The translations under genes and the position numbers were made by a program. From the NCBI GenBank assembly GCA_003144275.1, contig NJBF01000014.1:30001-62000 (forward strand): a stretch of DNA of 32,000 bases, read 5' to 3'. Source of the stretch: Candidatus Heimdallarchaeota archaeon B3_Heim (lineage in GTDB: Archaea; Asgardarchaeota; Heimdallarchaeia; Hodarchaeales; Hodarchaeaceae). Shown piece by piece: positions 4,295 to 30,244 of the stretch. The stretch's first letter is position 1. The number at the start of each line of letters is the position of its first letter. The notes under the pieces are model-generated. The model ran no database searches and had not been told where the DNA came from. It was given only the letters and a program-made list of their open reading frames with translations.

Positions 4295-4471
4295 TCAATC
4301 AGAATATGTTTTTTCGAGTGCTTTAATGAACTCTTTTAATAGTGAGTAAAAAGGACGAAGTTGTCCTTCTTCCCATTTTGCCGCAATTTTTTTGTAAAGA
4401 TCTCCTTCCAAGATGAGTTGAAGTCCAGTAGAGGTTTGCTGTACTGATATTCCCTCTGGTTCCATAGCCAT
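4295..4471 (-). CDS. small hypothetical protein (58 aa), below the ORF-track size cutoff
   Basis: Manual translation MAMEPEGISVQQTSTGLQLILEGDLYKKIAAKWEEGQLRPFYSLLKEFIKALEKTYSD*. It fills the otherwise empty gap, converges on the 4290 stop, and has a TATA-like element upstream. Confidence 0.6.
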   Translation of the reverse strand: MAMEPEGISVQQTSTGLQLILEGDLYKKIAAKWEEGQLRPFYSLLKEFIKALEKTYSD

Positions 4472-4525
4472 CACATAGCAATTTCAAAGGTGATAAATAA
4501 TACGAATCTAGCTAAAACTGCAGCG

Positions 4526-4538
4526 TATAAAGTTTTGC
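4526..4538 (-). promoter_or_regulatory. putative archaeal BRE/TATA promoter for the 58-aa ORF
   Basis: Minus strand reads GCAAAACTTTATA about 55 nt upstream of ATG 4471. Confidence 0.4.
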
Positions 4539-4543
4539 TAGGC

Positions 4544-4570
4544 AAAAATACAAAAAAAAGAGAGAGAAAA
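4544..4570 (-). terminator. T-rich archaeal-type terminator after porB
   Basis: Minus strand TTTTCTCTCTCTTTTTTTTGTATTTTT begins about 12 nt after the porB stop. Confidence 0.55.
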
Positions 4571-4581
4571 TGGGGGAGTAT

Positions 4582-7941: not shown

Positions 7942-8466
7942 ATGAAGGATCAATATGTTTTGAAAATTTGTTCTTCAGGATCCTACCAAGTCGGCAAAAC
8001 CTCACTTATCAGACGATATGCAGAAGGAGCCTTTACTTCGAACTACATGCCTACAATTGGAGTCGATATCACCAGCAAAGTAATAACGGTCGACAACCAA
8101 GAAGTTAAGCTGATATTACATGATACTGCAGGTCAGGAAGTTTTTGGTAAGCTTCGTAGATTCTATTATGAAGGTTCTGTTGGATGCTTAATCGTTTATG
8201 ACATTACACGAAGAGATACTTTCGAATCACTAGAATATTGGGTAAATGATTATCGAAGCGTGCGAGGAGAGGAAAGACCCATTGCTATTATTGGAAATAA
8301 GATAGATTTGGAGGATAAAAGACAAGTGTCTACAGAAGAAGGTGTCTCAATGGCCAAATCATTCGGTATTCCGTTTTATGAGTGTTCAGCAAAAACTGGG
8401 GGAGATATTATTCCTGAAATCTATACAACGCTCGTTAAATTCAATATTGAAAAATTGGATGTTTGA
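7942..8466 (+). CDS. Rab-like small GTPase
   Basis: G1 GSYQVGKTS, G2 PTIGVD, G3 DTAGQE, G4 NKID, G5 SAK; RabF-like YYEGS and IVYDIT. Confidence 0.93.
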   Translation: MKDQYVLKICSSGSYQVGKTSLIRRYAEGAFTSNYMPTIGVDITSKVITVDNQEVKLILHDTAGQEVFGKLRRFYYEGSVGCLIVYDITRRDTFESLEYWVNDYRSVRGEERPIAIIGNKIDLEDKRQVSTEEGVSMAKSFGIPFYECSAKTGGDIIPEIYTTLVKFNIEKLDV

Positions 8467-13173: not shown

Positions 13174-14034
13174 CTACTGCTCTTTTTTTCTTTTTCCAAT
13201 AACCTTGATGTAAATTTCATAAGGTGGATTTAGTTCCTGTTCAGCGGTTATCGATTCATCGCGGAATAAATATAACAGAGATATTAGAACTCTTGCTCGA
13301 GTTAACCGTTTTTGCTCTTCTGAACCATCTTTTGTTTCCATTCCCCTAACTAACTTAGTAAATTCAGCCTCATCATTTTTATCTTGTTTAGCAAGGGTTT
13401 GAATCACTTCAAATGTTCGATTGACAATATCTTCAATCGCTACCCGATCTAAATCTAATTCATAATCAAAGCTCTCAAAGTCAGAAATTACTAATTTTCG
13501 TCTTTTACGTATTTCTTCCCCAGATTCCCTTTGTTTCCTCTTTTCTTCCTTAATCCTTTCAATTTTAAGCTTTTCATCTTCCTCTTGTAGACCTAATAAT
13601 AATTCTGCGTAGAACTCATCTGGATTAGCACTTTCTGCAAGTGATAATAATTCTCTCGTAATATAATATGGTAAGGGAATTTTAAACTTAAAAGCTCGTC
13701 TTTTTGTTCTTATAGAAATTTTTTCTTCTTGTTTTTTTTCGTATTTGATAGCTAGACTTACTTTCTTCTTATGAATTCGTGCAGCAGAATAGATGGCTTG
13801 CCCCAGAATACGAAAATCTAATCCTTGGTCCAATAATTTACGATAAAACTCAGGAAGAATTTCCTTTAGTTTGAATTCCTTAATGTAAGCAACTCTTTCA
13901 GGAAATAGATCTGGATTAATTAAATAAACAAAGGGTTCTTCCAAGAAAAATTGTTCACTATGGCTGAAAAGCCTGATGTACTCGTCTTCGGTATCAGGTG
14001 CTTCCTCATCTTGAGTGTTTTCAGGTTCAGCCAT
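13174..14034 (-). CDS. scpA: ScpA-like kleisin
   Basis: Directly downstream of smc (41 nt). N-terminal LDFRILGQAIYSAARIHKKKV resembles the kleisin N-terminal helix (AA.LL..KS). C-terminal EFTKLV...RVLISLLYLFRDESITAEQELNPPYEIYI resembles the ScpA cap wHTH (FLALL.L....I...Q...F..I.I). Confidence 0.82.
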   Translation of the reverse strand: MAEPENTQDEEAPDTEDEYIRLFSHSEQFFLEEPFVYLINPDLFPERVAYIKEFKLKEILPEFYRKLLDQGLDFRILGQAIYSAARIHKKKVSLAIKYEKKQEEKISIRTKRRAFKFKIPLPYYITRELLSLAESANPDEFYAELLLGLQEEDEKLKIERIKEEKRKQRESGEEIRKRRKLVISDFESFDYELDLDRVAIEDIVNRTFEVIQTLAKQDKNDEAEFTKLVRGMETKDGSEEQKRLTRARVLISLLYLFRDESITAEQELNPPYEIYIKVIGKRKKEQ

Positions 14035-14075
14035 GCTAAAAATCCGCTTGTACTTGTTAATTTGATAATCTATGA

Positions 14076-17000
14076 TTAAAATGTCTGATCTCTTTCTAAT
14101 TGTTGATCTTCACTCATTTGTATCGAGAATACAGAACTTAACCCTTTTACATTAGTGCAACCGTATAATCTATCCGCCCAGGCCATCAAAATATCACGAT
14201 GACTTATGACAAGAAATTGTGCTGCAGGAGTTGTTGATTTCCTTGACTTCTTGCCATCCTCCTCTGCTCCATCTCTTCCTACACTACGGGACATCTTATA
14301 CAGTAATTTTGCCACTCTCCTAACATTCATTGGATCCAAGGCGGCATCTATTTCATCTAGGATATAGAATGGTTGTGCATCAACGGTTTGCACTGCAAAA
14401 ATAAATGCTAATGCTGTTAGTGCTTTCTCACCGCCAGACATGCTTTCTAAAGAAGCAATTTTTTTGCCTGCAGGGTGTGCTTCAATGAAAAGGCCTCCTT
14501 CGAATATATCTTCCCCCTTCTTGGGATCTTTTTCAAGGATAAGCCGTGCATCTCCTCCAGAGAGCTCATTGAATATCTGGCCAAAATGTCTATTTACAGA
14601 TTTGTAAACTTTCATGAATACTGAATATTTTTCTGTTTCAATCTCTTCTATGAAGTCTAGGATTACTTGCCGTTCCTCAATTAATATATCTCTACGATCC
14701 AGTAATTCCATATATCTCGAATTTTCAGATTGAAATTCCTTCAAAGCGCGCATATTGACTGGTTCTAATCGTTTCTTCTCATCTGACTTACGATTTATCT
14801 CTGATTTGATCTTAGATTCATTTATTTTTTCTAATTCCTCTGCATCTGCAGGAATGATCTCAATCTGTGCCTCTAATGCTTCACTTTGTAATTTTTCCGT
14901 TTCTACAGCGATTCTTTCCCGTTGTAATTTTATATCGGTAACCTTTTCTTCATCTTTCGCAATCTTTTCGTTTAATCGCTCTTTATCTTTAATCAGTTGC
15001 CCTTGATACTTCTTTTGAGTTGACAGATCAGATCTATAATCCTTTATTTCCGTTAGAAGAGTTTCTTCATTTTCTAAGATCTTTTCTAAATCTGAATTGA
15101 ATTGTTCTACCTGTTCAACTAGTACTTGAATTTCTCCTTCCAAACTTGCTGTTTCAACCTTAATTGTATTATTTTCATTTTTCGTTTCTGATAATCGAGC
15201 TGTTCTTTCCTCTTTTTGGGCCTCAATGCTATTAATTCGTGAATCTATACCACTTAATTGGCCCTGTGATTTTCCCAACCTCTGTTCAATTTGATTCATT
15301 TTTTCTAACAAAGGCCGTGTATCTGCCGCCTCAAGACGTTCTTCAATATTTTTTGCCTCCTCCCCGATGACTTCAAGATTCTGCTCGTGGTGTTCCATCT
15401 CTTGTTTTTGTTTATCGCGAGCAATGTGGCGTTCTTCGAGCTTTTGTTTTAATGGGTCAAGTTCACCTTCAATACTTTGTTGATTTTCACTATATAGTTT
15501 AATTTCACTCTCTTGTTGACTTAATTGAAGTGTGGCTCCCTGTATGCTTTTTTCCAATTTCTCTATAGAAGAAATAATTACTTTCTCTATTCCTAGGAGT
15601 TTTTTCTGATTCTCCTTTGCTTGGGATAAATTAGACTTATATTCACCAAGTTTGGTTGTAATTTGTTCCATTTCAATTTGTAAAGAATCTACAGAGGCTT
15701 GAGCAGATAATAGATGAAATCCTCCAAATATTATTCCATTTGAGTAAAAAATATCACCATCAGCAGTAGAAAGGGTTGAACCTTGTTTTTTCCAGAGATT
15801 GGCAGCTTCTGCTAAAGTAGAAACGACTTGATTTTGCTCTCGGATTTTCTTGACAATATTTGAGAAATCATCAGTAGATTTCAGTTTAAATTTCTCAAGA
15901 GGGATAAAATTTGCAGCACCTATTGAATGTTCTTTCAAGAGATTGATACACTGTAAGCTAGCGTCAATGGTATCGGTTATAATAGCATCAGAAAGATGTC
16001 CAACCTCAGGGGGAAGATTACCACCATCTTCAGATAAATTTTGAAATTCACCAAGAATTCCCTTTATGGTTCCCTCGTTTTTCTTTCCACTTATGTAGGA
16101 TACCGCTGGGTTTTCTTTTCCTGCTTCCGATTTAACAAATGATGAAATTGTTTCAATTTTCGCTTTTAGAACTAATTGTTTGTCACTTAGTTCTCTTACA
16201 TGACTATCAGTTTCTTCAATCTGTCTTTCTAAATCCATTTTTTTCGTTTTTATTTCTTCTAGTTTTGCAGAAGCCTCAGTTTGTTGATTGCTTTCTTCTT
16301 CTATTTGGGTTTTCAGTTCTTTAGCCTTTGTTCCAGCCGAACTGATTAGTGCTTCCGCTTCTGATTGCCGTCGTTGATATTCATCAACATTATTCTGAAA
16401 AGCATTCACCATATTTTGAGATACTTCAAATGAAACCTGAGTTTTGGTTAAACGATCACCTTCAATTTTTTGGCGTCTTTCCGCATCCTCAAATTCTGCT
16501 TTTATCTCATCATACTCTTGATTTTTTAATTCTAGTTCTTCTTCAAGTGAAGTACGATCATTTTGGATTTGTGATATCCGTTCAACTAATTCTTCTTTTT
16601 TACCAGTCAATTCTCCCTTGGTTTGACTATCATCCAGAATTTTCTTTTGAATTTCTTCAGAGCGTGATTCTAATTGTTTTACTCGATTTTCATTAGATTT
16701 TATTGTTTTTTTGTTATATTCCGTTTTTTCTTGAACTTTTGTTTTCTCAATATTTTTTTCCTCTGCAGACGATCGAATTTCTTTCAGAGAAGTCTCCACA
16801 CGAATTAAAGAGTCTTCTAACGTTCTGATTTTCTCAGTAACTTCTTCAACATTAGTATCGATTTGCGACCGCTCTGATACAATATTTTCTTGACTGCTAC
16901 GAATAGTAGCGATATCTTCATCGAATTCTGTTAATGCACGATTGTTATTATGATAGGAATAGGATATTAAAAGAGCTTTCAGATTTAAAATATCAGTGTC

Positions 17001-17663
17001 TAATTGACTCCACCTTTCAGCATCTTCTTTTTCTTTTCGTAATAATTCAACACGTTTAGCAACTTCATTTACTAGAAGCTGTAATTCAGCCATTCTTTTA
17101 TTCGCTTCTTCTAGCTCTGAAAGGGCAGAATGCTTTTTTTTATCAAACTGTCCCACTCCTGCGAGATTTTCCATCATTTGTCGACGTTCGATCGGATTCA
17201 TTCCGACAATTTCACCGACTTGGCCTTGAGCTATTATATTATAGCTATTTACGACATCTATGCCTGCGATTCTTAGTTTATCTAAAATATCTGTTCGTGT
17301 TGTTCGTTTCCCATTCAGTCTGTATGTGCCTGATCCATTTGTTTTTAGTTCTCGGCTTACAATTACTTCTGATTCTTTAATAGGAATGGCATAATCACTA
17401 TTGTCAAAGACAATTTCAACAAATGCCTTTTCTGACTTTTTTTTGCCCCCGATTCCATTATAGATGAGGCCCACCATCTTATCTGCCCGCATACTTTTTT
17501 TGGAAAGAGCACCAAGACAGAAATTAACGGCATCAATCGAATTAGATTTTCCACTCCCGTTTGGCCCAACAATTACAGTAAATCCTTTGGCAAGGGGCAT
17601 TCGGACTGTACCAGGTCCATATGATTTCCAACCGGTCATCCTAATTTCTTTGATATGTACCAA
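14076..17663 (-). CDS. smc: chromosome segregation protein SMC (1195 aa)
   Basis: Walker A GPNGSGKSN, Q-loop IIAQGQV, hinge GX6GX3GG (GDIFYSNGIIFGG), signature MSGGEKAL, Walker B/D-loop FYILDEIDAALD, H-loop VISHR, two long coiled coils; TTG start. Confidence 0.98.
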   Translation of the reverse strand: MVHIKEIRMTGWKSYGPGTVRMPLAKGFTVIVGPNGSGKSNSIDAVNFCLGALSKKSMRADKMVGLIYNGIGGKKKSEKAFVEIVFDNSDYAIPIKESEVIVSRELKTNGSGTYRLNGKRTTRTDILDKLRIAGIDVVNSYNIIAQGQVGEIVGMNPIERRQMMENLAGVGQFDKKKHSALSELEEANKRMAELQLLVNEVAKRVELLRKEKEDAERWSQLDTDILNLKALLISYSYHNNNRALTEFDEDIATIRSSQENIVSERSQIDTNVEEVTEKIRTLEDSLIRVETSLKEIRSSAEEKNIEKTKVQEKTEYNKKTIKSNENRVKQLESRSEEIQKKILDDSQTKGELTGKKEELVERISQIQNDRTSLEEELELKNQEYDEIKAEFEDAERRQKIEGDRLTKTQVSFEVSQNMVNAFQNNVDEYQRRQSEAEALISSAGTKAKELKTQIEEESNQQTEASAKLEEIKTKKMDLERQIEETDSHVRELSDKQLVLKAKIETISSFVKSEAGKENPAVSYISGKKNEGTIKGILGEFQNLSEDGGNLPPEVGHLSDAIITDTIDASLQCINLLKEHSIGAANFIPLEKFKLKSTDDFSNIVKKIREQNQVVSTLAEAANLWKKQGSTLSTADGDIFYSNGIIFGGFHLLSAQASVDSLQIEMEQITTKLGEYKSNLSQAKENQKKLLGIEKVIISSIEKLEKSIQGATLQLSQQESEIKLYSENQQSIEGELDPLKQKLEERHIARDKQKQEMEHHEQNLEVIGEEAKNIEERLEAADTRPLLEKMNQIEQRLGKSQGQLSGIDSRINSIEAQKEERTARLSETKNENNTIKVETASLEGEIQVLVEQVEQFNSDLEKILENEETLLTEIKDYRSDLSTQKKYQGQLIKDKERLNEKIAKDEEKVTDIKLQRERIAVETEKLQSEALEAQIEIIPADAEELEKINESKIKSEINRKSDEKKRLEPVNMRALKEFQSENSRYMELLDRRDILIEERQVILDFIEEIETEKYSVFMKVYKSVNRHFGQIFNELSGGDARLILEKDPKKGEDIFEGGLFIEAHPAGKKIASLESMSGGEKALTALAFIFAVQTVDAQPFYILDEIDAALDPMNVRRVAKLLYKMSRSVGRDGAEEDGKKSRKSTTPAAQFLVISHRDILMAWADRLYGCTNVKGLSSVFSIQMSEDQQLERDQTF

Positions 17664-17902
17664 ATGTCGGGCCCCTATTAAGAGACTAAAAGAAGTGCAA
17701 TATTTGCAGATTGTTTACTTGAATTAAAGCCCTTCCTAATAAAACATCATTCTTTTCAAGGTCTTTGATTGAAATGTCTATTAAAAAGGTATTCAAATGA
17801 GTCATTAGTCGTTCTATGGATAACAGTAGAATCATTGAAATGAAAGTTATTTTTTAAAGGTTCTTTGAAAGAAAACAAACGTAAAAAGTTCATAACAACT
17901 GG

Positions 17903-17922
17903 ATACTTTTATATAAAAGTAT
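17903..17922. promoter_or_regulatory. perfect 20-bp palindrome centred on TATATA
   Basis: ATACTTTTATATAAAAGTAT is its own reverse complement; it lies in the intergenic gap upstream of smc. Confidence 0.55.
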
Positions 17923-17977
17923 ATACAGATATCCAGAATTAACTTGGGAGAAATATGACGATAATCCCATCCGTTTC

Positions 17978-18547
17978 TCAAAATTTCCAAGCTTTTCCCT
18001 TTTTCTCCCTCTCTACAAGTAAAATACCTAGATGAGAAAAGGGTGAACTAAGTCCCTCTCCAGATTTAGCTGAACAAAAATAATATCCAGATAATCCATA
18101 ATCTTTAACGAAATTCTCCGCTGCCTCAGATATCAATTTTCTTTTATCGTCCTCTACTGTATCTATCTTATTTCCCAACAGAATTATCGGGAGGTCAGGA
18201 TTATTGTGCTCTTTCATCATTTTAAGCCATTCAGGGATTTCTGAAAGAGTTTGAATCCGTGAAGTGTCAAATGCGACAATACCACCTGAGGATCCTTGAC
18301 AGTAACCAGGAAAAAGTGATTTAAAGCGATTTTCTCCCGCATAATCCCAATAGGCTATTCTGAGTATTGTCTCGCCTACTTCATGATCTAAAACCAGAAA
18401 GTTCACTCCAACAGTACTTATTGCAGGAATATAACTATTTGTTTCAAGACGTTTGAGTAAGGTAGTTTTTCCCACACCGCCAGGACCTGCCACTACAACT
18501 TTAACAGTTAAAACATCTGGGGTAAATTGAAACTTACTACTGGCCAT
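17978..18547 (-). CDS. Ras-superfamily small GTPase (Rab/Roc-like), G3 = DYAGE
   Basis: G1 GPGGVGKTT, G2 STVGVNF, G3 WDYAGENRF, G4 NKID, G5 SAK. Confidence 0.92.
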   Translation of the reverse strand: MASSKFQFTPDVLTVKVVVAGPGGVGKTTLLKRLETNSYIPAISTVGVNFLVLDHEVGETILRIAYWDYAGENRFKSLFPGYCQGSSGGIVAFDTSRIQTLSEIPEWLKMMKEHNNPDLPIILLGNKIDTVEDDKRKLISEAAENFVKDYGLSGYYFCSAKSGEGLSSPFSHLGILLVEREKKGKAWKF

Positions 18548-18571
18548 AAGTCATTCATTTCCAAGTAATGA

Positions 18572-19096
18572 TTACTCTTTGTTTTTCTGTTTCTCTAGAA
18601 TTCGAGTCACAAGTCTATGAAGGAGCTCTTGGGTGTTTTTTCCTGTGATTGCACTGGTTGTAAAATATTCATCAATATTGTGCTGATTTCTGAATTCATT
18701 AATCTCAACAGGTGAAATAGACAAACCAAGGTCGGCTTTTGTAGAGACTAGGAAATTTGTACTCTCTGTTTCCCTACCATATACCTGTATCCATTCATGG
18801 AGGGCATTAAAAGTTTGTTCTCGTGAGGGGTCAAATGCAAGTATTAGTCCGTCGCAATCAGAGGAGTATTGTGGAAAAATCGTCTGAAAACGCGGCTCTC
18901 CACCGAAATCAAATAGATGAACGTCGATAATATCACCATTATCCAATGAAATACTTTTAACTGTAAAATCAAATCCTACAGTGGAGTAGAGGTCTTTTAA
19001 AGGGAATTTTTCATGCATAAATCGATGTACAAGTGATGATTTTCCCACGCGTTTTTCTCCTGCGATTACCACTTTAACTGATTTATTCTGTGACAC
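18572..19096 (-). CDS. Ras-superfamily small GTPase (Rab/Roc-like), G3 = DFGGE
   Basis: G1 GEKRVGKSS, G2 STVGFDF, G3 FDFGGEPRF, G4 TKAD, G5 SAI; GTG start. Confidence 0.9.
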   Translation of the reverse strand: MSQNKSVKVVIAGEKRVGKSSLVHRFMHEKFPLKDLYSTVGFDFTVKSISLDNGDIIDVHLFDFGGEPRFQTIFPQYSSDCDGLILAFDPSREQTFNALHEWIQVYGRETESTNFLVSTKADLGLSISPVEINEFRNQHNIDEYFTTSAITGKNTQELLHRLVTRILEKQKNKE

Positions 19097-19265
19097 CCAG
19101 TATTCCCATTCCGAAGATAAACTCTTTTTAGTTTAGTATCGAGGTTTGAGTTAATTATCTGCAATTAATCTAATTGGCAAAGTTTCATTTAAATCTTCTT
19201 AATTGGCCTTTTTCAAATAACCATTCATTTTGCGAGACGAGTTTTCCTTTATACTTTAGATCTAA

Positions 19266-20435
19266 TCAGGGCGTATCATCTGGATTTAGATTATCGGAGT
19301 TTTCTTGGTTTTTATTTTCAACGATTGAAGATAATTCAGTTGGTAAATGGATTTCTGCTGTCTTTATGAGCATAGAAAGTTCTTCAGCATGCAAAGCTAC
19401 AGTTGAGAGTAAGGAAAAGACCGCTTCATACTTTTCATTAACTTTTCGATCAATTACAGCCTGAATTTCACTTTGGATTCGTTCCAGTTCTTCTTTATTT
19501 GTTTGCATACTCTGAGATTGAGATTCAATTATTGTTTCGTATTCTTTCATCGAATTTTGCAGGTTTTGGGTAATCTCTTCTCTTGAACGTGATGTCTGGG
19601 TTTGAATTTCTTCAGAGAAGCTAGCAAAAGCCTGTTGAAGATCATCGCCTACTTTTTTTCTTGTATAGTGTTCCGATACTTCATTCAGAATTTGAATATC
19701 GGATTCTTTGAGATTTTGTGTCGTGAGGGTAATTTCAGTCCTAATATTTTCATTAAAACTCTCTAACATTCGGGAAAAATTTTCAAAATGAGATTGCTGG
19801 TCCTTTTTTGATAATGAAATAATTTCCTGGAGTTTTTCTTTAAAGCTTAAGAGACTCTCCCTCACATTACTAAACGCCTCTGTATGAATTTGAGTAATAT
19901 TATTTAATGATTTGACACTAGCTTCTAGTGTAGTTGTAGTTTTTGTAACCTCTTCGAATTTTGTTCGTACTAGCTCTCCCAAAGCAGAAACAGATGATTG
20001 TAAATTAGATTCACTCTTTTCAAGATGCCCTGAAATTTCCGAAAACCCCTCCTTTACTTCAGCTGTAAGATTGCCTAATTTCTCTTCCTGTTCTTGCAGA
20101 GAATTATTTAAGTTCTCATGGTCTTGTTTCTGTGAAGATATTTCGGCTTTGAAATTATTTTCTTGTGTTTCCATTGCCACGGTAAGAGTCTGTATTTCAG
20201 AGGAAATTTCTTCCTGCACATGCTTTATCTCTGAATTAAAATTATCATTAAAATCCCTCATTTTTTTACCAAGTTCTATATCAAGATCCTGAGATTTTGA
20301 TTCCCAATTGTTTATTTTAGACTTTAATTCTTCAATTGTTGCAGAATTCTTTTGTAAATAAGTTGTTAACTCTAAAATCCTTTCGGCTAATTCTAGTTCT
20401 TCAGGATTTGAATCTATTTTCTCTTCTTCAGCCAA
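19266..20435 (-). CDS. long coiled-coil/helical protein (~390 aa)
   Basis: E/S/Q/L-rich and proline-free over ~350 residues. TTG at 20435 with upstream GGAG is the likely start (track start 20459) and overlaps the upstream gene's stop. Confidence 0.8.
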   Translation of the reverse strand: MAEEEKIDSNPEELELAERILELTTYLQKNSATIEELKSKINNWESKSQDLDIELGKKMRDFNDNFNSEIKHVQEEISSEIQTLTVAMETQENNFKAEISSQKQDHENLNNSLQEQEEKLGNLTAEVKEGFSEISGHLEKSESNLQSSVSALGELVRTKFEEVTKTTTTLEASVKSLNNITQIHTEAFSNVRESLLSFKEKLQEIISLSKKDQQSHFENFSRMLESFNENIRTEITLTTQNLKESDIQILNEVSEHYTRKKVGDDLQQAFASFSEEIQTQTSRSREEITQNLQNSMKEYETIIESQSQSMQTNKEELERIQSEIQAVIDRKVNEKYEAVFSLLSTVALHAEELSMLIKTAEIHLPTELSSIVENKNQENSDNLNPDDTP

Positions 20436-20853
20436 TCTCAGTCTTCTCCTTAAAATCATTTATTGAATCTTCAAAGGATATTCTAATATCTTCAAGGCGG
20501 TTAAATAATCGTGTTTCAATACTTTCTTGTAGGATGAAATCGTTAATTTGGACTTTTTCACGAATCACTGGAGCAAAACGTTTCCAATGTGATTGAATTT
20601 CAGTTATATTTTTTAAATTTGAGACAATAAGAACTTTCAATTCTTCACTTAACATATTTACTAGGAGTCCATACTTTTCACTACCAACTTGAATCTCTAA
20701 GAACCCCTCTTCAAGTGTAGGAATTCTTTTAATCGCCAGATAAAAATTTGGGTTTTCTTGAACCACAGGGAATAGCTCTCGAGGCGTTTGGATGAATATA
20801 CCGGCAACAGAAAACCCTATAGCGAATTTGTCAAGTAGCTCTCTTAGACTCAT
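20428..20853 (-). CDS. hypothetical protein with a Roadblock/LC7- or longin-like pattern plus a C-terminal helix
   Basis: Apparent order: helix LRELLDKF, strand VAGIFIQT, strand, helix FYLAIKRI, strands FLEIQVG, KYGLLVNML, LKVLIVSN, helix EIQSHWKRFAPVIREKV. ATG 20853 is preceded by GTGAT. The fold call is by eye only. Confidence 0.5.
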   Translation of the reverse strand: MSLRELLDKFAIGFSVAGIFIQTPRELFPVVQENPNFYLAIKRIPTLEEGFLEIQVGSEKYGLLVNMLSEELKVLIVSNLKNITEIQSHWKRFAPVIREKVQINDFILQESIETRLFNRLEDIRISFEDSINDFKEKTEIG

Positions 20854-20969
20854 TAGAATCACAAGTATAGATATTGATTATTAGACTCAGTATGATGAAG
20901 ACTATTAAAATAATCGATATTCAAGAAAAGTAAAAAGCTCATAAAACTACGATTTTAACAGTGATCCTC

Positions 20970-21677
20970 ATGAGTAGCCCAAACCCCGGAAGCGAAACAA
21001 CAGTTATTATCCCAACTTTAAACGAGGAGAAAAATATAGAAAATATGATTACTCAACTACTTAGTTATTATCCAGGTATTTCTGTTATAGTTGCTGATGA
21101 TGGATCTAAGGATGAAACAGGAACAATAGTTTCCGATTTTCATGCAAAGAATGAACTAATACGATTTCTTGATCGGAAGGATGAAGAGATTAAGGGATTA
21201 ACAATCTCACTAATTGATGCTTTGGAAATTACGCAGACACGATATTTTGTTGTAATCGATTCTGATTTTCAACACCCTCCCGAAAAAATTGGTGAAGGGA
21301 TAAAACTTTTTGATACGGGTAGTCAGTTAATAATTGGTACACGTACGAGTGTTGAAGGCTGGGGCCTTAAAAGGAAAATTATTTCGTGGGGAGCAACAAC
21401 ATTGGGAAAAATTAGCTTATTCTTACGGAGACGACCGAGGCCTAAAGATATAATGAGTGGTTTTTTCGGAGGTCAGACGGAATATTTTAATACAATTATC
21501 CGTAATCATCCAAAAACCATTTCTCCACGTGGTTATAAACTTCTATTTGATATTTTAAAGGTTTTACCAAGAGATACTCAAATTGGAGAATTCTATTATG
21601 AATTTCAAACACGACAAGCAGGGGAATCAAAAATAGGTCTAAAACATATACTTGTTTATTTTCGTTCTCTTTTTTGA
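20970..21677 (+). CDS. GT2 glycosyltransferase, polyprenol-phosphate mannose synthase (DPM1)-like
   Basis: VIIPTLNEEKNI, IVADDGSKDET, VVIDSDFQHPPE (DxD), IGTR, DIMSGFF, GYKLLFDIL, RQAGESK. Confidence 0.88.
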   Translation: MSSPNPGSETTVIIPTLNEEKNIENMITQLLSYYPGISVIVADDGSKDETGTIVSDFHAKNELIRFLDRKDEEIKGLTISLIDALEITQTRYFVVIDSDFQHPPEKIGEGIKLFDTGSQLIIGTRTSVEGWGLKRKIISWGATTLGKISLFLRRRPRPKDIMSGFFGGQTEYFNTIIRNHPKTISPRGYKLLFDILKVLPRDTQIGEFYYEFQTRQAGESKIGLKHILVYFRSLF

Positions 21678-21700: not shown

Positions 21701-22324
21701 TCAGGTTTGTCGTTGTTCTGTAACTGTGCGTTGGGGAGCTGCTTTCAATCGACTTGTAGTTCTACTAGTTTTCCGTTGATTTTCAACAAATCTCATGACA
21801 TTCGTTCCGAGAAGGCCAAAAGCATTCTGAATATTGATGCCTGTTTTTGCTGATGTCTCTATATAATGACATTCGAATCCTTCTCCTTTTGTGAGGTTCG
21901 ATAGACGATTGGTAAATACTCGGCCTTGTTCTGGAGAAACCGTATCGTCAGATAATTCTCTCATATCAATCTTGTTAGCTACCACCACTATAGGCACACG
22001 TCCTCTCCCATTATTCGCCCAAAGCTCATTAATCCATTTTGGTGTGTTAAAATAAGAATCAGGACGGGTTACATCATAAACCAAGAGGGCACCGACACAT
22101 CCTTTGTAATATACTTCTCTAACGGCATCAAACCGTTGTTGTCCAGCTAAATCCCAGATTTGATAGCGGATATCCGATCCATTAACCATATCGTCTCTCA
22201 TAGCGAAATCCGCACCGATAGTCAGGAGATATTGTGATTTGAAACCTTTACCTAAGTACCGCTCGCGAATAGCTGTTTTTCCTACCCCTCCATCTCCAAT
22301 AAGTACAATTTTTAAAACGGTCAC
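21701..22324 (-). CDS. Rab-like small GTPase with a basic C-terminal tail
   Basis: G1 GDGGVGKT, TIGADF, YQIWDLAGQQRF, YYKGC, LVYDVT, NKID, ETSAK. Confidence 0.95.
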   Translation of the reverse strand: MTVLKIVLIGDGGVGKTAIRERYLGKGFKSQYLLTIGADFAMRDDMVNGSDIRYQIWDLAGQQRFDAVREVYYKGCVGALLVYDVTRPDSYFNTPKWINELWANNGRGRVPIVVVANKIDMRELSDDTVSPEQGRVFTNRLSNLTKGEGFECHYIETSAKTGINIQNAFGLLGTNVMRFVENQRKTSRTTSRLKAAPQRTVTEQRQT

Positions 22325-23680: not shown

Positions 23681-25093
23681 CTAGACTAACATTTCGAAGA
23701 ACCACACAAGATCCAATAATAAAGAATAACTGATTGTAATTCCTTCTTTTGACCTTGTTCCGAGGATAGAATATTCGATACCTTTCTCAGAGCCCTTCAC
23801 TTTAACATTTAAGTTTCCAGCCTCACTGATTTGATTTGCAACAACAGTTCGGTGTTTAATTTGGTCTTGGATATATTGAGTTCCAGTTATCTCAATATTT
23901 TTCCATGGATTATCCCAAGAAGGTGGTCGTGAATTGTGGGGATTGTCTATTTGGAGAGAGAATTGATGCTTGGGAATTTGTATAGAATTTCCCTTAAGAA
24001 GTGCTTGATCAGATGAAGGAAATGTCACACGAAGGAGGGGCAATTGCGATGAGAAAGTCTCAATTTCAACTGTGTTCTCCTCATAATTGATATTTTTGGC
24101 TTGATACCGAATTGAGGTAAACAATGGGATTAAAAGATTGGATTCCGTTGTTTTTTGGACAATATACTTCGCATTCTGCGGACTTATTGATCCAAGTTGA
24201 TCAGTACTTACTTCCATTTTCGGGGGGGAAGCACTTTCCATTTTTTCCTGGTGAATTTTTTTTTCTTCCAGTTTTTTCAAATCTCTCTCTGGATGAAGCT
24301 TGATTTTTGGAAGTCTAGTAAGTTTATACAAAGCCTCCTCTGCTTGATATTTACTCGTATATGTGTCTTTCAAAGTATGAGTTACAGGGCTACTTGCAGG
24401 GGACCAAGATACTGTGAAGTCTCTTGAATCTCCCTGTGTTTCATCTGATTTTAGTAGATACCCTTTTTGATTCAGTAGACCCACAGAGGCCAAAGCCATA
24501 TTGTAAGCGTTTAGGAAGCTGTTCGGAGTCATAGATTCCATTCTAATTTGAATGACAGTTGTGCCATCTTGATACCAATAGAGGCTATATGCTTCAATAT
24601 CGTAGTTTCGCCGAAGCATCTCTCCCAATTCTGTTTCTAGAAACAAATTACGAACAAATACTGAATTCTCAGCACTTATTTTAAAACGCTGGTCAAAAAG
24701 AGGAACTCCCAACTTGACTCTAGTTTTAGGATCATTCCAGGTGATTTGGGGAGATACTAAAAGATTTAACCTATCATTACTTGACTGGCGAAATTTAGCC
24801 CTATCAATAACACCTCGCAAAATTAAATCGCGGTCTGTTACCCCTTCTTGTTTATTTGTTATAACCTTAATCTCAAGAGACTTGAAGGGACCTGCTTTGT
24901 GTGACTCTATAATTGGATCAGAAGATAATCCACCATAATCAATAATTTTAGTATCTGGATAACGACGGACAAGGTAATAGAATACATCCTTCGCGAAGGT
25001 ATTCTCATCCTTTATATTTTGGGAGTATAAGGCGTAAATGATGAAGTAAAGAAAAATGAGAACAATTCCTATTATGAATACAGATTCTAGCAT
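23681..25093 (-). CDS. hypothetical single-pass membrane protein (470 aa)
   Basis: N-terminal hydrophobic helix VFIIGIVLIFLYFIIYALY followed by two globular-looking regions separated by a polar linker. Confidence 0.8.
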   Translation of the reverse strand: MLESVFIIGIVLIFLYFIIYALYSQNIKDENTFAKDVFYYLVRRYPDTKIIDYGGLSSDPIIESHKAGPFKSLEIKVITNKQEGVTDRDLILRGVIDRAKFRQSSNDRLNLLVSPQITWNDPKTRVKLGVPLFDQRFKISAENSVFVRNLFLETELGEMLRRNYDIEAYSLYWYQDGTTVIQIRMESMTPNSFLNAYNMALASVGLLNQKGYLLKSDETQGDSRDFTVSWSPASSPVTHTLKDTYTSKYQAEEALYKLTRLPKIKLHPERDLKKLEEKKIHQEKMESASPPKMEVSTDQLGSISPQNAKYIVQKTTESNLLIPLFTSIRYQAKNINYEENTVEIETFSSQLPLLRVTFPSSDQALLKGNSIQIPKHQFSLQIDNPHNSRPPSWDNPWKNIEITGTQYIQDQIKHRTVVANQISEAGNLNVKVKGSEKGIEYSILGTRSKEGITISYSLLLDLVWFFEMLV

Positions 25094-29983: not shown

Positions 29984-30244
29984 TCTTTTCAAGCATCCTT
30001 TTTAGTAAGTCATTAAACTGACCCTTAGATTTTTAAGCATTCTTCTAAAGGTATACAATTTCTCCATCCATTATTATTAGAAAAAAGTTCCGCCTTAATG
30101 TGTCAAGAAAAAGAAAATAGAATTATCATAGTTCTTGCTATTTTTGTAAGATATCTAAAGAAAAATAAGATAAAGAGTTTATGATTGCTAAACCCTTAAG
30201 AATTTCTCTCTTAGCTTTTAAGTGATTGAATAGAGTGTAATTAC

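Follow-up and report, generated by a model that had tools for sequence, protein, structure and literature searches.

A predicted Roadblock-fold protein and its putative helical partner encoded near Rab-like GTPases in Hodarchaeales

Established gene neighbourhoods that join a Roadblock protein to a GTPase include MglA/MglB, the conservon and Group 1 Rup (PMC4316618). In the first of these, MglB positions both the intrinsic catalytic Gln and the intrinsic Arg finger of MglA (PMC4316618). Among the Asgard archaea, Liu et al. (bioRxiv 10.1101/2020.10.19.343400) described an operon of a LAMTOR1-like protein, a Rab-like GTPase and a DENN protein, reported in most Asgard lineages. Asgard genomes hold dozens of small GTPases and many Roadblock/longin proteins, and according to Tran et al. 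(PMC10933270) the GTPases can generally not be matched to regulators by gene order and are rarely found in operons. Here we describe a locus in a 32,000-nt stretch of DNA (hereafter the window; positions 30001 to 62000 of contig 23) from a Hodarchaeales metagenome-assembled genome of 3.95 Mb and 94% completeness. It encodes a Roadblock-fold protein of 141 amino acids (aa), a long all-helical protein that we call the rod, and two Rab-like GTPases, A and B. The gene neighbourhood is conserved and was detected only in Hodarchaeales and close relatives. We give slightly better than even credence to the reading that the Roadblock-like and rod proteins form a complex serving as a platform, regulator or effector of A and B. 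Any particular direction of action, be it as a GTPase-activating protein (GAP), a guanine-nucleotide exchange factor (GEF) or an effector, is clearly less probable than this reading taken as a whole.

An earlier reading of the window, made from the sequence alone, had proposed four consecutive minus-strand genes at 17978-20853 (Table 1) as a self-contained module of a Roadblock-like protein, a long coiled coil and twin GTPases. The list of open reading frames (ORFs) bears out the gene arrangement, including the overlap of 8 nt between the first two genes when the rod gene is started at TTG 20435, and the 169-nt gap ahead of the GTPase genes, which are themselves 24 nt apart. The overlap of the Roadblock-like and rod genes is also 8 nt in close relatives, and in every distant locus the two genes either overlap or lie no more than 58 nt from each other.

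The sequence-only reading had staked itself on the four genes keeping company elsewhere, which they do, and beyond simple collinearity, in distant loci with changed flanks. The distribution was assessed in a sample of 400 Asgard genomes. Within the genus of the window the order is fixed: a 470-aa membrane protein or OCD, a 207-aa Ras-family GTPase, a GT2 glycosyltransferase gene on the opposite strand, the Roadblock-like gene, the rod gene, A, B and SMC, sometimes with an insert of about 2 kb before the last. Further afield, the GT2 gene and the pair are followed by an A-like gene in locus L004 and by a Ras-family gene, TiaS and arginase in L005. The pair of L030 (overlapping by 13 nt) precedes an A-like gene and then unrelated genes, and that of L029 stands between a glycerate-kinase-like gene and three other genes, after which comes a B-like gene. 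A B-like gene, GT2, the pair and an OST48_N-like gene make up L051/52; L053/54 has the same order with a TnpB fragment inserted between GT2 and the pair. In L048 and L050, where the upstream context is cut, the pair is followed by an ABC ATPase or TBP. The pair thus persists in L005, L029, L030, L048, L050, L051 and L053 with differing flanks, and a GTPase gene lies at most three genes from it wherever the context suffices.

These neighbouring GTPases were compared with all of the approximately 49 Ras-family genes of the window's genome. With clear margins in every case, B is the closest counterpart of the neighbours in L051, L053 and L029 (150 vs 108, 132 vs 101 and 118 vs 95 bits) and A that of the neighbours in L030 and L004 (139 vs 95 and 85 vs 53 bits). 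The B orthologue has moved to the other side of the GT2 gene in L051 and L053, and in genome G078 the best B-like gene of the whole genome lies 3.3 kb downstream of the pair. A was seen directly after the pair in the genus of the window and, among the eight distant lineages, in L004 and L030 alone; in the most distant loci it is B whose orthologue remains beside the pair. The conserved set comprises the coupled pair, a B-type GTPase (joined by A in several lineages) and usually a divergent GT2 gene. The proposal of a self-contained module did not survive this comparison, as the deep set takes in the divergent DPM1-like GT2 together with the Roadblock-like/rod pair and the B-type GTPase. SMC was considered as a further member and rejected, its adjacency being confined to the genus and absent from all distant loci. 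Ras-family matches number 49 in the 3.95 Mb genome, or about one gene in 80, yet orthologous GTPases flank the pair in 19 genomes of the genus and in several distant loci with other flanks, so their presence beside it is more than chance.

The phyletic range of the pair is narrow. A profile search of 1.84 billion representatives returned fewer than 20 full-length relatives of the Roadblock-like protein. In the Asgard sample this family is present, once per genome, in 19 of the 21 genomes of the window's genus/family and in the two genomes of a second family belonging to this order. Nothing credible matched in the remaining families; the sole other match is a weak, stop-interrupted fragment in family f20 (E 1.7e-4). 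One of the two misses, G065, was discounted as an absence, there being a 300-N assembly gap beside its GTPase genes. B-type GTPases (E<=1e-35) occur in 20 of the same 21 genomes and in both of the second family. Three marginal B-like matches fall outside the order; the genes around them are those of histidine biosynthesis or malic enzyme and do not include the pair. The ranges of the pair and of the B-type GTPases, as judged from these searches, nearly coincide.

An AlphaFold2 (AF2) model of the 141-aa protein, built from an alignment of 21 sequences, has a predicted local distance difference test score (pLDDT) of 83.7 and a predicted template modelling score (pTM) of 0.74. Its elements (helix 3-14, strands 18-22 and 27-32, helix 36-42, strands 50-56, 59-67 and 73-79, helix 80-100) follow the a-b-b-a-b-b-b-a order of the Roadblock fold. 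Two more helices come after this Roadblock-type core (residues 1-100), the last of which (112-138) has a heptad-like hydrophobic pattern, and the C-terminal amphipathic helix (about residues 103-138) is conserved. In an exhaustive comparison of the model with 48,161 PDB representatives using VIA-align, the 24 leading rows are without exception Roadblock or longin platform domains (Z 8.5-10.7), with a root-mean-square deviation (rmsd) of 2.4-3.6 over 90-114 aa in all but one. The best match is the C-terminal domain of LokiRagO, a Lokiarchaeal RagA-like protein (Z 10.7, rmsd 2.4, 96 residues), and the other top rows include Mon1-Ccz1, CPLANE, MglC, MglB, LAMTOR subunits, Rag C-terminal domains and three solved Asgard Roadblock proteins. 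GAF, IclR and profilin folds rank lower (Z <=8.4). Foldseek searches against PDB, Swiss-Prot models, AFDB clusters and the Atlas returned the same families with weak E-values. Only F10, G18, W90 and R92 are invariant across the family, the last two within an HWKR motif at the start of the long helix.

The identification of twin GTPases is well founded, A and B both exceeding the Pfam thresholds for Ras, Roc and Arf (Ras scores of 95.6 and 101.5 bits). Their best solved relatives are Rabs (Rab18, Rab30, Rab11, Rab12 and Rab8) and not MglA. A has an unusual P-loop (GEK[RH]VGKS), DFGGE at G3 and TKxD at G4; B has GPGGVGKT, DYAGE, NKID and, at G5, SAK. Across orthologues the G1 P-loop, the switch I Thr, DxxG, [NT]KxD and the G5 SA[K/x] are invariant, so that neither protein looks like a decayed pseudo-GTPase. 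Ras-superfamily proteins carry a catalytic Gln at the G3 position, where A and B both have Glu (DxxGE), a replacement kept in orthologues from the second family of the order (f2); one very distant B orthologue retains Gln. Glu at this position need not mean inactivity, as Ras Q61E is reported to hydrolyse GTP faster than the wild type. The two proteins therefore have the Ras-fold G domain of Rabs with G1 to G5, and lack the catalytic Gln and the Cys tail: the C-terminus is polybasic in A and basic in B, and neither has a C-terminal Cys and hence a prenylation or lipid-anchor motif. The absence of the intrinsic catalytic Gln from DFGGE and DYAGE also sets them apart from the MglA type. Both are single-domain proteins without the C-terminal Roadblock dimerisation domain of Rag/Gtr, and their Gtr1_RagA scores (18.0 and 12.1 bits) lie below the cut-off of 22.

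The rod had been described as a long coiled coil, a call that holds as far as an all-helical protein with long helices is predicted and not as far as the classical period is concerned. Its AF2 model consists of three helices (19-127, 135-264 and 271-367) and a disordered acidic tail, with a pTM of 0.23 at which helix packing is not defined. The hydrophobic period is 3.58-3.60 over the full length in the window protein and most orthologues, with a periodicity power of 4.9 against 1.14+-0.29 in shuffles. Because this is one coherent period of 3.58-3.60 and not 3.5, the protein is predicted to be an amphipathic rod or bundle and not a classical coiled coil. Rod orthologues measure between 224 and 518 residues; it is their N-terminal and central parts that differ in length, and the C-terminal 200 or so residues are conserved. 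Within the C-terminal half an RKVNEKYE motif holds the invariant I..R..NEK core, followed by the most hydrophobic stretch of the protein. An orthologue at L032:10210-11592 (+) shows recent tandem duplications of a segment of about 25 residues (EKLEQQAQDTEK...STQFSTVN), which shows that the central part of the rod expands by such repeat gain. No transmembrane (TM) segment (maximum KD(19) 1.42), no known anchor domain and no GRIP or ALPS-like anchor was found in the rod. The tether role that the sequence-only reading had suggested for it gains no support from these features. A family search gave no informative Pfam or NCBIfam match, Foldseek found no match of the rod model in PDB, and feature and structure searches of the ESM Atlas yielded only unnamed helical clusters, below 0.9. 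Faint Pfam matches to Apolipoprotein, Baculo_PEP_C, Perilipin and ATG17 fall below the cut-off in the window protein and were set aside as helical-repeat noise.

We propose that the core of the system is the translationally coupled pair, in which a small divergent Roadblock-type protein ending in an amphipathic helix would accompany a long all-helical rod. Given the coupling of their genes in all lineages and the amphipathic C-terminal helix of the small protein, we infer that the two form a stoichiometric complex. In its simplest form a Roadblock-fold dimer might be seated on the rod through the C-terminal helix, by analogy with LC7 on the dynein intermediate chain and with the Roadblock pairs of Ragulator, which are wrapped by LAMTOR1 helices. 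Such a complex may serve A and B as its dedicated GTPases, acting as their platform, regulator or effector in the manner of MglB-MglA or Ragulator-Rag. The GTP cycle of A and B is probably unconventional, with intrinsic or partner-assisted hydrolysis, since the nucleotide-binding motifs are kept and the catalytic Gln has given way to Glu. TM segments and lipid-anchor motifs are absent from all four proteins, which would for this reason have to make any membrane contact by way of the polybasic tails of the GTPases or of the rod's conserved, hydrophobic C-terminal helix. The observations beneath this proposal are those of gene structure, fold, motif conservation, phyletic range and linkage that resists rearrangement.

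Two groups of results weigh against the proposal, the first of which concerns the 141-aa protein. Its Z scores of 9-10.7 only modestly exceed the 7-8 that models usually reach when nothing clearly matches them, and folds of the PAS/GAF type are structurally close to this one. The protein has no match in Pfam (E<=1) or NCBIfam (0.01). Searching the whole genome with PF03259 (Robl_LC7) at E<=10 gave 12 places, none of them its ORF, and a hidden Markov model (HMM) search of PDB sequences with its family returned no Roadblock match. Alignment of the 32-sequence family to six canonical Roadblock proteins of the same genome with hhalign was co-linear, at E 0.13 and a probability of <1%. The Roadblock assignment, which the sequence-only reading had made by eye, accordingly stands at the level of fold, from the AF2 model and structural matches, and fails at that of sequence, where no HMM or profile match was obtained. 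Because the fold matches and the sequence tests failed, we regard the 141-aa protein as a predicted Roadblock-fold member of a separate, unannotated family and not of Robl_LC7.

These same results bear on the alternative that the 141-aa protein is a PAS/GAF-like small-molecule sensor and the locus a ligand-responsive signalling unit. GAF, IclR-effector, PAS and chemoreceptor ligand-binding domains do occur among the VIA-align matches (Z up to 8.4) and in Foldseek rows, but they rank under 24 rows of Roadblock or longin domains. The succession of an N-terminal helix, five strands and a closing helix is moreover that of Roadblock, and no cofactor-binding motif or Cys/His cluster is conserved in a family with just four invariant residues. 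We give the sensor hardly any weight.

The second group of results concerns the neighbourhood. Genomes of the genus share one gene order all the way from the 470-aa gene or OCD to SMC, and the 19 of them consequently add little independent weight. In L005 the neighbour is a Ras-family gene that is not a specific orthologue of A or B, in L029 three genes, one of them on the opposite strand, intervene between the pair and the B-like gene, and in L048 and L050, with their upstream sides cut, the available context shows no GTPase. All orthologues have 52-187 nt of spacer ahead of GTPase A, which leaves room for separate transcription. A GT2 gene is the most constant neighbour of the pair bar the rod itself, and a pure GTPase module leaves it unexplained.

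It may be, then, that the gene order is simply inherited without direct interplay, Ras genes being abundant and the lineages related, and that the pair is a self-standing structural complex such as a cytoskeleton-like or chromosome-associated rod. The 49 Ras-family matches, the collinearity of the genus, the GTPase-poor or non-orthologous contexts of L048, L050 and L005 and the constant spacer before A all fit this account, as does the report that GTPase genes of the Asgard archaeon MK-D1 are generally not in operons with Roadblock/longin genes (PMC10933270). Against it, what has been kept near the pair is specifically the orthologue of B or of A, rather than any paralogue at random, and it has stayed there despite changes of side, orientation and flanks; the nearly coincident phyletic ranges of the pair and the B-type GTPase also speak for a connection. 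We judge inheritance alone to be unlikely, and continue to favour the pair as a platform, regulator or effector of A and B.

The GT2 enzyme itself has as its closest solved structure the Pyrococcus furiosus DPMS (5mlz; E 5.9e-25), which it matches over residues 24-243 of 374, that is, over the catalytic domain only. The DPMS membrane domain is absent, there is no TM segment, and NCBIfam equivalog scores are far under their cut-offs. A GT2 without a TM segment recalls animal-type DPM1, which is anchored through DPM3. The gene is divergent from the pair and adjacent to it in the genus, L004, L005, L051/52 and L053 (with the TnpB fragment between in the last), and those of L051, L053, L005 and L004 are reciprocal best matches of the window gene. 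L050 has a GT2 gene at the same position that is not orthologous, and L029 has none beside the pair. An OST48_N-like gene with Pfam scores below the cut-off lies convergently after the rod gene in two distant lineages, at L051:7058-8362 (-) and L053:6820-8094 (-); in the window's genome its orthologue lies apart from the locus, on contig 88 at about 84.4-85.7 kb. The 470-aa membrane protein upstream was considered as an OST48-like neighbour and rejected, since it shows no BLASTP similarity and the OST48-like orthologue is the one on contig 88. The TnpB fragment of L053, at 4336-4581 (-), encodes 81 aa of a Cas12f/TnpB-like protein between the GT2 and Roadblock-like genes.

From this constancy one could argue that the pair is a scaffold for the DPM1-like GT2, holding the TM-less enzyme at the membrane as DPM3 does, with the GTPases as upstream regulators or passengers. 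The divergent, reciprocally matching GT2 genes, the restriction of the window's enzyme to a catalytic domain and the OST48_N-like gene directly after the rod gene in two distant lineages are all in keeping with such a role. On the other hand, L029 lacks the GT2 gene beside the pair, the same-genome OST48-like orthologue is elsewhere, and the rod is itself without a TM segment or known membrane-binding domain. To our knowledge the Roadblock fold has no role in glycosyltransferase anchoring, which also counts against the scaffold, and we hold it to be quite unlikely. The two ideas could be combined in one machine, in which a Roadblock-capped rod would bring cargo, such as the soluble dolichol-phosphate glycosyltransferase, to a site on a membrane, with A and B in control; this we consider very unlikely. 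Were the DPM1-like link true, GTPase switching would be tied to lipid-linked glycan synthesis in an archaeon.

Table 1. Coordinates within the window of the Roadblock-like/rod/GTPase locus and its immediate neighbours
Feature	Position	Strand	Remarks
Roadblock-fold protein, 141 aa	20428-20853	minus	ATG 20853; alternative GTG 20862
All-helical rod protein, 389 aa	19266-20435	minus	TTG 20435; 397 aa if ATG 20459
Intergenic spacer, rod gene to GTPase A, 169 nt	19097-19265	minus	
GTPase A, 174 aa, Rab-like	18572-19096	minus	GTG start
GTPase B, 189 aa, Rab-like	17978-18547	minus	
GT2 glycosyltransferase, 238 aa	20961-21677	plus	divergent from module
Third Rab-like GTPase, 207 aa, canonical DLAGQ	21701-22324	minus	co-directional with module, just past GT2 gene

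Start codons were assigned by comparison with orthologues. Those of the Roadblock-fold ORF mostly begin at the position of ATG 20853, with a GTG nine bases upstream as a possible alternative. For the rod gene TTG 20435 is the most likely start, because it aligns with the start Met of orthologues, with the starts set by gene callers and with the start of the ESM Atlas record; ATG 20459 would lengthen the overlap to 32 nt. The position of the GTG start of GTPase A is identical across all orthologues, and upstream alignments show a Shine-Dalgarno-like purine motif ahead of it and no consistent TATA/BRE element. Rfam has no match in 17600-21100. Scans for sigma-70 promoters and terminators gave scores at the level of shuffles and no clear terminator, these being models that do not apply to archaea. 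RNA is represented by two contigs of about 250 nt from one metatranscriptome, with five differences each, which lie inside the rod gene only (19723-20220) and may reflect DNA carry-over; no RNA contig bridges the spacer before GTPase A.

The window contains four Ras-family genes in 32 kb, two of which are canonical DxxGQ Rab-like genes, namely the third GTPase of Table 1 and another at 7942-8466 (+). Across the genus the gene of the 207-aa GTPase is found in the same position, on the far side of the GT2 gene. Upstream, the 470-aa protein (23681-25093, -) has one N-terminal TM helix and no family match, and most members of the genus keep it (33-38% identity) as the outermost upstream gene of the region. 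Downstream of the module and on the same strand, SMC (1195 aa) and a conserved 286-aa protein occupy 13174-17663 (-); the insert of about 2 kb seen in several genomes of the genus falls between GTPase B and SMC. Elsewhere in the genome, contig 57 (16972-18933, +) carries a canonical run of three genes on one strand, in which a Ras-family GTPase gene is flanked by two Robl_LC7 genes, and on contig 70 (9899-12163) a Ras-family gene lies near a tandem-Roadblock ORF. Linkage of Roadblock and GTPase genes thus recurs in this genome.

Among known organisms the Hodarchaeales, an order of Asgard archaea, are reported to be the most closely related to eukaryotes. In this setting the locus offers a specific candidate pairing that has been kept through rearrangements, between a Roadblock-fold family with its helical partner and two orthologous Rab-like GTPases with a Gln-to-Glu site. 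Hodarchaeales isolates have been reported (bioRxiv 10.1101/2025.02.26.640444), and binding, GTPase kinetics, localisation and co-expression are therefore directly measurable.

Set against described systems, the locus is like MglB-MglA (PDB 3t12, 6hjm, 1j3w), in which a Roadblock GAP serves a Ras-like GTPase in bacteria and archaea, in encoding a small Roadblock-fold protein beside a single-domain Ras-superfamily GTPase. A C-terminal helix extends past the Roadblock core both in MglB, where it is functional, and in the 141-aa protein, and MglB and MglC are among the structural matches of the model (Z 9.1-9.6). In contrast to that system, the 141-aa protein lacks Robl_LC7 sequence similarity, A and B are Rab-like with DxxGE, a long helical protein is encoded between the regulator and the GTPases, the GTPases are two, and a glycosyltransferase gene is a constant neighbour. 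The operon of the LAMTOR1-like, Rab-like and DENN proteins is likewise a conserved Asgard neighbourhood of a Roadblock-superfamily protein and a Rab-like GTPase; here, however, a helical rod takes the place of the DENN protein, and the Roadblock-fold family is a different, unannotated one detected only in Hodarchaeales.

The actinobacterial conservon CvnA-D is also a multi-gene GTPase module with a Roadblock protein and an unknown partner, and Group 1 Rup combines a GTPase without the catalytic Gln with a predicted coiled-coil protein (PMC4316618). Unlike these, the present locus has no histidine kinase, diguanylate cyclase or OmpA-type membrane protein; it is archaeal, its GTPases are Rab-like, and the change is specifically from Gln to Glu. 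The Ragulator-Rag and Mon1-Ccz1 platforms provide the best structural matches of the 141-aa model, and in the former LAMTOR1 helices wrap the Roadblock dimers. A and B differ from Rag GTPases in lacking a C-terminal Roadblock domain and in scoring below the Gtr1_RagA cut-off, and the likeness is one of fold and logic only. As in Rab-golgin and other Rab-effector tethers, there is a genetic association between a long helical protein and Rab-like GTPases. The rod departs from golgins in its 3.6-residue rather than heptad period, in its three model helices of about 100-130 aa, which may fold back, and in having no TM, GRIP or ALPS-like anchor, and the GTPases depart from their Rab counterparts in having no prenylation motif. 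The pairing of a Roadblock protein with a GTPase is already known; new here are a family of Roadblock fold that sequence models do not detect, the helical protein that always accompanies it, a pair of DxxGE GTPases and the link to a glycosyltransferase.

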